Origin: Podarcis gaigeae
Lineage: Eukaryota
DNA: 64,000 nucleotides
Reading direction: 5' to 3' (one strand)
NCBI GenBank assembly: GCA_964106915.2
Contig: OZ066916.1
The notes below the pieces were generated by a model. That model did no database searches. It saw only the letters and a program-made list of their open reading frames with translations, and was not told the DNA's origin. The position numbers and the translations under genes were made by a program. This document shows, piece after piece, positions 3,201-4,222 of this stretch (its first letter is position 1; each line of letters opens with the position of its first letter).

Positions 3201-4222
3201 AGAAGCAAGCAGACAGAAATAGGAGGGAAGGTGAAATCATAAGGGTGGGAGACCGAGTGTGGTTGTCCACCCAAGGACTACCGTTCAAGGGTGGGAGTAA
3301 GAAATTGAGACCCAAGAAATTGGGACCCTTTGAGGTCATACAGCAGGTCAACCCAGTAGCATTCAAACTCAGACTGCCCAGTCACATGAAATTACACCCA
3401 GTATTTCACAGGTCATTACTGTCGCCGTACCGAGAGGGACGTGAGTGGGGGGAGCGTGAGAGAGAGGCCACCCAAACGCTCGTGATAGAAGAGAGAGAGC
3501 GCGACATGAACGTGGCAGGAATCATTGATTCCAGGTGGAAGGGGAATCAGGTGGAATATCTGGTAGAATGGGAGGGGGAAGTAGAGTCGGAAAACACTTG
3601 GGTGCCAGCAGAGGTAGTGAATGACGAGATCTTAATAGAAACATTTCATCAGCGTTTCCCAAGAAAACCGCAACCCGTGGCACGATTTAGAAGGGAACAC
3701 TTTGGGACCACCGATGAGGAGGGAGAGTTTGAAGGGTTCCCAGAGTCAGGGGTGGGTGAGGAAGCTGCCTCCGACGAAGAAGAAGAAGACGGGGAGAGAG
3801 ATGGGACGCCGTGGCTAGAAGTGTTTGAATCCTCTGATGACGAGGATTGCTCTTTCAGGGGCTTTCCGCCCTCACCGCCAGTGGGAGAGGAGGCGGGAGG
3901 GGGTGAAGGGGGGCCTGGGGGGGAGGTGGATGTCAGGGAACTGCCATCGGAGTTAGAGGTGCTGGACAGGCTCCAGCAGAGTAGGAGAGACTCTGCAGCA
4001 GAAGCAGGAACCAGCAGGGGGAGTGCAGGAGTTACAGCGGAGGGGAGGCTCTCAGACGCTTCTAGTGAGAATAGTGAAGAGGTAACTAGACCCCCTTTAG
4101 GAATTCCCTCCCTTCGCCGGAAACTGTCACGCAGAGAGTCACGAAAGCGCATGTCCGTCAAACAGCTTTTATGTTGGCGTAAGTTCCGTAGACGCCCACT
4201 GTCAGATTCTACCAGCGACTGA
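227..4222 (+). CDS. pol: Pol polyprotein (protease, RT, RNase H, integrase, chromodomain, acidic/basic C-terminal extension); -1 frame relative to gag
   Basis: LLDSG protease; LDLRGAY, MPFG and FLDD RT motifs; TDAS/RELLA/TDH/ADALSR RNase H; HHCC plus D-D-E integrase and GPF motif; YLVEWEG...NTW chromodomain. The frame is open from 227 (after TGA 224-226); the GTG start at 296 in the ORF track is probably not a real start. Confidence 0.95.
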   Translation, partial: NEGASKSQRLVANIRAQQPGQGVVNVPTPEPPRPALVIEVLLELANGHPLKIRALLDSGSSCNFMSKEFAAEHQIQTIPLSKPLQVTTIDGRELLGGEVSQQTVPMIMRVARHTELIAFNVATLGGAPIILGMSWLALHDPLVGWHQRVVSFGSAHCLEHCKEGEAQAGSRATLAGVEVMDKGKVPPQYADLIDVFSEKEADKLPPHRPFDCQITLLPGAQLPVGKLYAMSDSEMQELREFIDKNLKRGFIRESRAVGGSPVFFVDKKHTGKPRLVCDFRSLNAVSEPVTFPMPRIDDILTQVRKGKIFTKLDLRGAYNLIRVRKGDEWKTTMFTPLGAFEYLVMPFGLQGGSACFQSFMNHVLGPLLYKNCVAFLDDVLVYSENEEQHVRDVREVLSKLRENRLWVKLEKCQFHTREVEFLGYRLSDKGLAMDPSKVQAVLEWKTPKTKKDVQRFLGFGNFYRKFIKNFAHLTAPITDCLSSKKKFVWTEEAQRAFERLKQAFASEEQLLHVDLQQPMRVETDASDRAVGAVLLQPGKDTSEWRPCAFFSRKLNKSERNYTVYDRELLAIHEAFRKWRHLLIGAQHKVQVRTDHKNLEYWRTARVLNQRQVRWAQEFSKFHFEIRYVPGSENVRADALSRKPEYLEGEGAPEARHVISEDRWVCGAALVGQRELMEGTENDEYAQEKLRELRRTEENTGGFEEKNGALYYKGALYIPDGELRGRVLKQLHDSPTAGHFGQHKTMWLVTREFWWPKVREDVREYVRGCDRCQRAKGERVAPAGLLQPLPTPERPWEAVSIDFMTDLPKSKGKTAVMVVVDLLTKMCHFIACSHAVTAEETAKLFVEHIFRLHGAPLRVVSDRGKQFTSRFWRKLMSLLQVELNFSTARHPETNGQAERANGILQQYLRCYVKDRENDWVDKLPLAEFAYNNAENVSTGMSPFLANYGCHPRAFPGEGGERWSVPAAELFFEEMEAIHRQLQLNLERAKEEYKKQADRNRREGEIIRVGDRVWLSTQGLPFKGGSKKLRPKKLGPFEVIQQVNPVAFKLRLPSHMKLHPVFHRSLLSPYREGREWGEREREATQTLVIEERERDMNVAGIIDSRWKGNQVEYLVEWEGEVESENTWVPAEVVNDEILIETFHQRFPRKPQPVARFRREHFGTTDEEGEFEGFPESGVGEEAASDEEEEDGERDGTPWLEVFESSDDEDCSFRGFPPSPPVGEEAGGGEGGPGGEVDVRELPSELEVLDRLQQSRRDSAAEAGTSRGSAGVTAEGRLSDASSENSEEVTRPPLGIPSLRRKLSRRESRKRMSVKQLLCWRKFRRRPLSDSTSD
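239..307 (+). promoter_or_regulatory. Predicted -1 ribosomal frameshift signal (slip site plus H-type pseudoknot)
   Basis: Stem 1 GCCTGGTTG (252-260) pairs with CAGCCAGGC (278-286); stem 2 GGGCACA (270-276) pairs with TGTGCCC (301-307); 6-nt spacer after A-GTA-AAA (239-245), within the gag/pol overlap. Confidence 0.7.

Follow-up and report, generated by a model that had tools for sequence, protein, structure and literature searches.

In several plant retrotransposons, namely CRM group A, Beetle7 of Beta, and Bingo1-4 and 7, the pol frame reads into the long terminal repeat (LTR) at the 3' end, and the LTR-coded part is a putative targeting domain (PMC3059260, PMC3605345). Some plant chromoviruses carry chromodomains of group II, which, in PMC3605345, are reported as detected only in plants. 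On the side of host chromatin factors, the TND-interacting motif (TIM; TND, TFIIS N-terminal domain) comprises a helix that supplies a Phe, Val, Leu or Ile anchor, then 8-16 residues of acidic linker rich in Ser and Thr, and optionally an FxGF (PMC9987994). A unique role is played by the FxGF in the binding of LEDGF and HRP2, readers of histone H3 methylated at lysine 36 (H3K36me), and host proteins contain tandem copies of the motif (PMC9987994). Lentiviral integrases bind LEDGF in a different manner, via a pocket of the folded catalytic dimer that is missing in non-lentiviral integrases (PMC3185499). Here we describe a lizard retrotransposon in which a read-through of the known kind is combined with an integrase tail of new design. 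The element lies near the start of a 64,000-nucleotide stretch (hereafter, the window) of contig OZ066916.1 from Podarcis gaigeae (assembly GCA_964106915.2).

The pol frame (227..4222, plus strand) comprises 1331 codons from stop to stop and remains open across the polypurine tract (PPT) into the 3' LTR. Pfam recognizes in it, in Gypsy order, protease (PR), reverse transcriptase (RT), RNase H (RH), integrase (IN), an SH3 region (PF24626, aa 1008-1069) and a chromodomain (PF00385, aa 1096-1143, above cut-off). The PR-RT-RH-IN order, with a chromodomain after the SH3/GPY-F region at the integrase C-terminus, identifies the element as a Ty3/Gypsy chromovirus; its closest named proteins are Gypsy polyproteins of Podarcis muralis (85-87% identical). 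Beyond the chromodomain, the integrase continues as a tail of 188 residues. The features on which the argument depends are as follows.

227..4222, plus strand: pol frame with protease, RT, RNase H, integrase, SH3, chromodomain and 188-residue tail (open reading frame list, Pfam).
3512..3655, plus strand: chromodomain, aa 1096-1143, with cage M-W-E for Y-W-Y (Pfam, alignment to HP1 chain 1kna, confident fold).
3677..3739, plus strand: TIM-like motif 1, aa 1151-1171: RFRREHF, 8-residue acidic linker, FEGF (pattern, relatives).
3809..3865, plus strand: TIM-like motif 2, aa 1195-1213: WLEVF, 9-residue acidic linker, FRGF (pattern, relatives).
3917..3930, plus strand: PPT, translated within GPGGEVD (sequence, identity among relatives).
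3931..4327, plus strand: 3' LTR, 397 nt, TG..CA, without TATAA or AATAAA (contig depth, junctions, solo LTR, motif scan).
3950..4090, plus strand: LTR-coded variable linker, aa 1242-1288, in frame, relaxed sequence (48% mean identity, variants mostly non-synonymous).
4091..4222, plus strand: conserved basic block coded by the LTR, aa 1289-1331; closes with LLCW..RPLSDSTSD before the stop (71% mean identity, dN/dS 0.31).

Neither the chromodomain without its cage nor the pair of FxGF motifs was mentioned in the preliminary description of this locus; together they are a more telling part of the tail than its LTR-coded end. We propose, with a probability of about 0.5, that the tail is a two-part chromatin tether in which the FxGF motifs are predicted to bind LEDGF/HRP2. 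In this scheme, Gag-Pol processing would leave the tail on the mature integrase, Ser and Thr residues of the acidic linker would be phosphorylated at CK2-type sites, and each motif would dock on the integrase-binding domain of LEDGF/HRP2. Such docking would draw the integration complex to H3K36-methylated, transcribed gene bodies instead of the heterochromatin marked by methylation of histone H3 lysine 9 (H3K9me) that is read by intact chromodomains, and the basic, LTR-coded end would add nuclear import or nucleosome/DNA contact.

The chromodomain matches HP1-family chains in the PDB. In the alignment to HP1 chain 1kna, its cage reads M-W-E, with two of the three aromatics lost; the same positions read S/Y/N/H-W-E in the relatives. 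The domain lacks the full set of three cage aromatics (Y-W-Y) of the Group I chromodomains, the H3K9me readers, and, with the first and third aromatics missing, resembles Group II by pattern, not by descent, in a tree without plant group II rows. This tree contains 39 chosen rows, not all matches. The cage was lost within a squamate-rich clade (named members: Podarcis, Anolis, Vipera and Rhineura) whose other members keep it. Cage residues were called from aligned columns; the fused models P0180, P0185 and P0243 and the rows without the SH3 end motif were dropped before the tail, motif and cage counts, and two rows gapped in a cage column were left out of the cage counts.

Directly after the chromodomain and before the PPT, the tail contains the motifs RFRREHF-GTTDEEGE-FEGF and WLEVF-ESSDDEDCS-FRGF. 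Both end in FxGF (FEGF and FRGF, respectively), both linkers (8 and 9 residues) fall within the 8-16 residue range and are rich in D/E/S/T/G, and the Phe anchor before the linker is conserved. A pattern that describes these motifs matches 12 of 113 chromovirus tails, no site in 116,797 upstream pol residues and none of 84 further pols; when the acidic segment of this copy is shuffled, one match appears in 1.1% of the cases and two in at most 0.08%. Judged by the aligned cage columns, the motif is present in none of the 96 cage-intact rows, and all 14 motif rows lack the full cage. The 12 motif rows included in the tree form one clade (support 100/100). In the family set (26 Podarcis-type proteins in three clusters, 24 from UniRef and 2 unnamed), each of the 19 members that reach the motifs carries both. 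Across 15 rows, amino acid identity is 80% in motif 1 and 64% in motif 2, compared to 31% in the spacer between them. Contigs of four public runs (X1, X2, X5 and X6) were compared over 3480-4480, with 40 of 110 variant sites listed, none of those 40 within 4110-4222; the DNA variants listed in the motifs are 9 synonymous and 3 non-synonymous ones. The strict six-residue consensus S/E-x-F-x-G-F (PMC7337902) is matched in P0004, P0009, P0054 and a sister family, and in three of the four runs Ser prevails by depth at position -2 of motif 2.

The sister Podarcis family (P0181-P0186, P0195 and their members), with an integrase that is about 53% identical, has lost all or nearly all cage residues and carries a single, Ser/Thr-type FxGF motif, WLF-TPTLSAST-F[QHR]GF followed by acidic residues (DSDEE), in 21 of 22 members; its tail extends about 212-221 residues past a PPT-like junction. 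The motif of this family closely resembles the HRP2-binding DPF3a peptide LFGSTSESDTSTFHGFDEDD (PMC7337902). Podarcis genomes hold such motif-bearing, cage-less families and a cage-intact family (P0188 type) side by side. In an AlphaFold model (14 sequences, mean predicted local distance difference test score, pLDDT, of 56), the chromodomain folds confidently and the tail is predicted to be disordered, with pLDDT mostly below 50 past the chromodomain; a low-confidence helix appears at aa 1311-1319. The ESM Atlas yielded one match, at 0.76 with low recognition, which was disregarded. A putative occurrence of this motif in pogo transposases was not confirmed, the main text of PMC7386202 containing no mention of LEDGF or of the integrase-binding-domain-binding motif (IBM). 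Our searches of open-access papers retrieved no report of a retrotransposon integrase carrying an FxGF/TIM motif, nor of squamate read-through.

The second part of the putative tether is encoded beyond the PPT. A PPT-like purine run at 3917-3930 is followed by the LTR, which opens TGTCAGGG at 3931 and ends at 4327 (397 nt, TG..CA ends); the 5' LTR and the primer-binding site (PBS) lie beyond the window, and the limits were set from contig depth, contig junctions and comparison with a solo LTR. Summed contig depth drops more than 1,100-fold from bin 4296-4329 to bin 4330-4363 in all four runs; flank contigs set in at 4327; a contig from X1 connects 4328 back to 3930, and an X6 contig is aligned from 3931 on, preceded by 13 unlike letters. 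The preliminary description had the pol frame cross the PPT and run about 97 codons into the LTR, and this is borne out: the frame is open to 4222, and the contigs together with the solo LTR place the start of the repeat at 3931, not past 4222. Its further statements that about three quarters of the LTR are coding and that the LTR copy has no canonical TATA box or AATAAA likewise agree with our measurements, a coding share of 292 of 397 nt (73.6%) and a 3931-4327 sequence that lacks TATAA, AATAAA and each of 11 variant hexamers. AATAAA and ATTAAA are absent also from the whole sense strand, where few would be expected given the purine skew, and we do not count this as evidence. The PPT is read within GPGGEVD, and aa 1229-1241 show 97% amino acid identity among 15 relatives. 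From base composition alone, an open frame of this length has a chance of p = 0.019.

A relic of the same kind of repeat elsewhere in the window provides a measure of constraint on the LTR-coded part.

34445..34894, minus strand: diverged solo LTR, 450 nt, with GTACC duplication, two internal stops, TATAA and AATAAA (20-mer match, duplication, frame comparison).

The solo LTR shares its starting 20-mer with the 3' LTR (1 mismatch, chance 0.01) and has perfect TGTCAGG/CCTGACA ends within a perfect GTACC target-site duplication; a blastn alignment of the two LTRs was barely obtained. It keeps the reading frame and the terminal peptide, with the stop at 73.6% of the length in both LTRs, and has two internal stops, as expected once it was freed from selection. 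Its TATAA falls within the conserved coding block and precedes the stop by about 40 nt, which would place the end of the frame near the U3/R border of the LTR.

In the preliminary description, the LTR-coded part was considered Arg/Lys-rich; this holds for the last 37 residues (14 K+R, 3 D+E) but not for the first 59, a neutral-to-acidic linker (7 K+R, 11 D+E). The two parts also differ in conservation, with mean identities among 15 relatives of 48% for aa 1242-1288 and 71% for aa 1289-1331; Pfam finds no family in the 97 LTR-coded residues. Of the 9 variant sites listed in the linker, 6 are non-synonymous and 2 synonymous, with the remaining one forming half of a pair of changes. When the basic block is compared with the solo LTR, the last 46 codons align without gaps, the proportions of synonymous and non-synonymous differences (pS and pN) are 0.63 and 0.33, respectively, and dN/dS is about 0.31; the BLOSUM score is 119 against a null of 46 +/- 16 (permutation p 1e-4), and in the two other forward frames of the same comparison pS is below pN. 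Just one indel is listed at 10% share, a single-base change at 4234 that lies beyond the stop and recurs in all four runs; rarer gaps inside the coding part occur in single contigs. Thus, the LTR-coded end block (the last ~45 codons) is under protein-level constraint, which makes a role in nuclear import or in nucleosome/DNA binding plausible. Several R-R/K-x-S sites are present in the basic block at 4120-4210 (RKLS, RRES and KRMS, with RRVS in relatives); we take these to be PKA/Aurora-type sites that could switch chromatin binding.

The PPT-LTR junction is crossed in 19 of the 26 family proteins, a proportion biased upward because protein databases favour long open frames, and the other 7 are models that end earlier. 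Most of these relatives do not stop before the PPT; every protein that reaches the junction crosses it. Of the 19 crossing proteins, 17 reach 75 or more residues into the LTR, and the same terminal motif closes 14 of them. The read-through is a fixed trait of the family. More broadly, 20 of 103 related pols with a callable chromodomain have a tail of more than 70 residues past it, and 17 of these 20 belong to one 19-row squamate-rich clade (support 99/99); two Crotalus pols have short tails. This distribution fits the earlier statement that most pol frames stop near the PPT. Read-through is not new in itself, given the plant precedents and the other squamate families. In cage-intact Podarcis and Anolis families (P0188, P0189, P0191 and members; the Anolis cluster alone has 366), the tail appears, from the proteins only, to pass a PPT-like junction, with 95-120 residues beyond it that end in RRSAR[LI] in 4 of 4 and 8 of 10 of the members long enough to score. 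RRSARL is the core with which HMGN proteins bind the nucleosome acidic patch (PMC12480509), and so the RRSAR[LI] endings point to the squamate long tails as possible chromatin tethers. The clade of the present copy ends in a basic run followed by S-x-x-x-[LI]-L-x-W. In metagenome contigs, 35 loci match the SH3/chromodomain part only, at 28-68%, and none of 49 candidates in viral contigs was confirmed.

Several observations weigh against the proposed LEDGF/HRP2 tether. The search pattern was written after the motifs had been seen. Both motifs of this copy miss the strict consensus, with G and C, respectively, at position -2, and the Podarcis family-A copies carry LEGF or MEGF as motif 1 and keep FxGF in motif 2. 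Four cage-less rows lack the motif, and because the 12 motif rows form a single clade, cage loss and motif gain represent one evolutionary event, which by itself is no proof of coupling. The AlphaFold model of the free tail has no helix in motif 1 and three helical residues, at pLDDT below 55, in motif 2; a PDB sequence search with the tail and with each motif retrieved no solved chain at E up to 10. As for the LTR-coded end, RRSAR[LI] is absent from the basic block of this copy and from its clade, the third-position excess between the LTR and the solo LTR is not significant alone (24/56, p 0.09), and copies with a long open frame are over-represented in protein databases. The two insertions in the window are both intronic and in sense, but with n = 2 this carries no weight on targeting.

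In a different account, the tail is functional, its FxGF motifs bind another partner (another TFIIS-N-terminal-domain protein, a general reader of acidic motifs or, within the element itself, the basic block or the capsid), and import or nucleosome signalling falls mainly to the basic end encoded in the LTR. We regard this as possible, if doubtful: conservation is established for the motifs and the partner is only predicted, the strict consensus is missed in this copy, the acidic half of the tail (26 D+E in 80) could pair with the basic end (14 K+R in 37), and cage-intact relatives do with a basic RRSAR[LI] end alone. The choice of LEDGF/HRP2 is favoured over such partners by the full Phe-linker-FxGF spacing, present in duplicate, by how closely the sister family's motif approaches the DPF3a peptide, by the FxGF role described as unique to LEDGF and HRP2 (PMC9987994) and by the lack of tail fold-back in the monomer model, itself of low confidence.

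It is unlikely that only the basic end block matters, as a nuclear localisation signal, and that the acidic motifs are incidental to the purine-rich stretch before the PPT. The region is indeed G/A-rich (GC skew 0.24 and AT skew 0.21 over 2001-4000), which by itself yields Glu, Gly and Asp, but pyrimidine-rich Phe codons are kept at fixed spacing across families with ~53% identical integrases, the inter-motif spacer decays whereas the motifs do not, and the variants within the motifs are synonymous at a ratio of 9 to 3; the data so far, which are partial, suggest a cross-family dN/dS well below 1 for the motif residues. Least probable, and already largely refuted, is a neutral read-through after loss of the pol stop, with the LTR part conserved only for promoter and integration signals in DNA: the mostly non-synonymous variation in the first half of the LTR-coded stretch (6 vs 2, with 1 paired, at the 9 listed sites), the TATAA of the solo LTR inside the conserved block and the not so tiny chance of the open frame (0.019) would suit it, but pS is twice pN in the coding frame and below pN in both other forward frames, the BLOSUM score exceeds the null, the stops of the two LTRs coincide in relative position, the sole indel listed at 10% share lies past the stop, and the TATAA is not kept in this copy.

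Setting the tether reading in a wider frame, we suggest, more tentatively and short of even odds, that this lizard chromovirus lineage lost heterochromatin reading and evolved linear mimics of the host partners of LEDGF/HRP2, arriving at a gene-body tether like that of human immunodeficiency virus (HIV) by another structural route. In this wider proposal, squamate chromoviruses generally would use most of U3 to encode a nucleosome-gripping end, which would be HMGN-like in the cage-intact families. If the tether is real, it would illustrate the way in which a chromovirus changes the chromatin that it targets, and within one lizard genome sister elements would be directed to opposite kinds of chromatin. 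For the greater part of its length, a vertebrate LTR can serve both as promoter and as protein-coding sequence. If LEDGF/HRP2 binding fails, the more modest remainder is a vertebrate counterpart of the read-through in plant CRM elements.

The remaining features of the element and its surroundings are listed below.

3..296, plus strand: gag, its 3' end with the zinc knuckle; overlaps pol (-1 frame).
4220..4327, plus strand: non-coding LTR end with two predicted stem-loops (folding z = -2.65).
4328..4332, plus strand: GGTTG, candidate target-site duplication (sequence; the partner copy would lie beyond the window).
5120..5245, plus strand: internal exon of a host gene, bounded by AG..GT and lying downstream of the element on the same strand (open reading frame list; not named by Pfam).

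The gag and pol frames overlap by 70 nt (227-296, -1 frame). The segment 150-296 contains no canonical slippery heptamer (X XXY YYZ), and a stop at 224-226 closes the pol frame where two relatives continue open; this copy (227-4222) therefore may make no Gag-Pol product. At the other end, the 4220-4327 segment folds into two stem-loops (z = -2.65, as good in 1 of 200 shuffles), possibly relevant to the missing polyadenylation signal; the end of the solo LTR shows no such fold (z = -1.1). Flank contigs of X2, X5 and X6 continue 79-471 letters upstream in sequence unlike the LTR, as at an empty site, whereas that of X1 begins at 4327; contigs with 0-1 differences from the element copy have a depth far above that of the flank. 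Because of these empty-site-like contigs and the depth of the near-identical ones, the insertion appears to be young and polymorphic. One X1 contig runs from LTR end to LTR start over 5 letters (head-to-tail LTRs), and another contig jumps from 3934 to 4301 (an LTR deleted internally).

The element is intronic and in sense with the exon at 5120-5245, and the solo LTR is located between exons of a SpoU-domain gene, also in sense; on the minus strand, the region near 21,850 holds a SpoU-domain exon and that near 52,000 a first exon. From gene order, we take the exon at 5120-5245 to be SLC35F3-like; SLC35F3, COA6 and TARBP1 are the presumed host gene names. Long inverted-repeat elements at 14057-14278 (with a perfect 100-nt arm pair), 28200-28338 and 29062-29208 are likely DNA transposons of the miniature inverted-repeat (MITE) type. 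A 202-codon open frame at 58683-59307 (plus strand) is presumably SGNH-hydrolase-like, of a type that we assume to be typical of some accessory frames of DIRS elements or long interspersed nuclear elements (LINEs).

Among known systems, coding sequence inside U3 is shared with HIV nef and with sag of mouse mammary tumour virus. These are separate genes on their own messages and do not extend an integrase. The preliminary description, although right on the repeat start at 3931 and on the read-through, erred in invoking nef and sag as precedents, the lizard case being an in-frame integrase extension like that of CRM group A (PMC3059260). The likeness to CRM group A lies in the extension of pol into the 3' LTR. 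In those elements of plant hosts, however, a CR motif past the PPT replaces the chromodomain, and the elements are associated with plant centromeres; in this element of a vertebrate host, whose nearest relatives are lizard elements, the chromodomain fold is present upstream and followed by the FxGF motifs, and the LTR part consists of a linker and a basic block; no scan aimed at the CR motif was made. The Group II chromodomains of Tekay, Reina and Galadriel have lost the first and third cage aromatics, as in the lizard element, where, unlike in Group II, the loss occurred in a squamate-rich clade and is succeeded by a long tail that bears motifs.

The motifs themselves compare best with the host TIM/IBM motifs of JPO2, IWS1, MLL1, ASK, DPF3a, PogZ and Drosophila JIL-1, which have the same Phe anchor, acidic Ser/Thr linker and FxGF (PMC9987994, PMC7337902, bioRxiv 10.1101/624023) and are in tandem in JPO2 and ASK, as in the lizard tail. 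The FxGF motif of JIL-1 serves the fly homologue of LEDGF (10.1101/624023), and PogZ, a domesticated DNA transposase, is the nearest link to mobile elements (PMC3185499). The lizard element differs from these host proteins in that the motif belongs to the integrase of an autonomous retrotransposon, with binding predicted only and the strict -2 position missed. With lentiviral tethering the lizard element would share the predicted host factor and the outcome, gene-body integration, but its binding would be by a linear motif in a disordered tail. Among integrases, LEDGF tethering is treated as lentivirus-specific in PMC3185499, so that a retrotransposon FxGF, if it binds as predicted, would be an independent solution. 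A short motif in a disordered integrase C-terminus is likewise used by Ty1, which binds AC40 of Pol III, and by murine leukaemia virus, which binds BET proteins; those tails address other host factors, belong to other groups of elements and are not encoded in an LTR.

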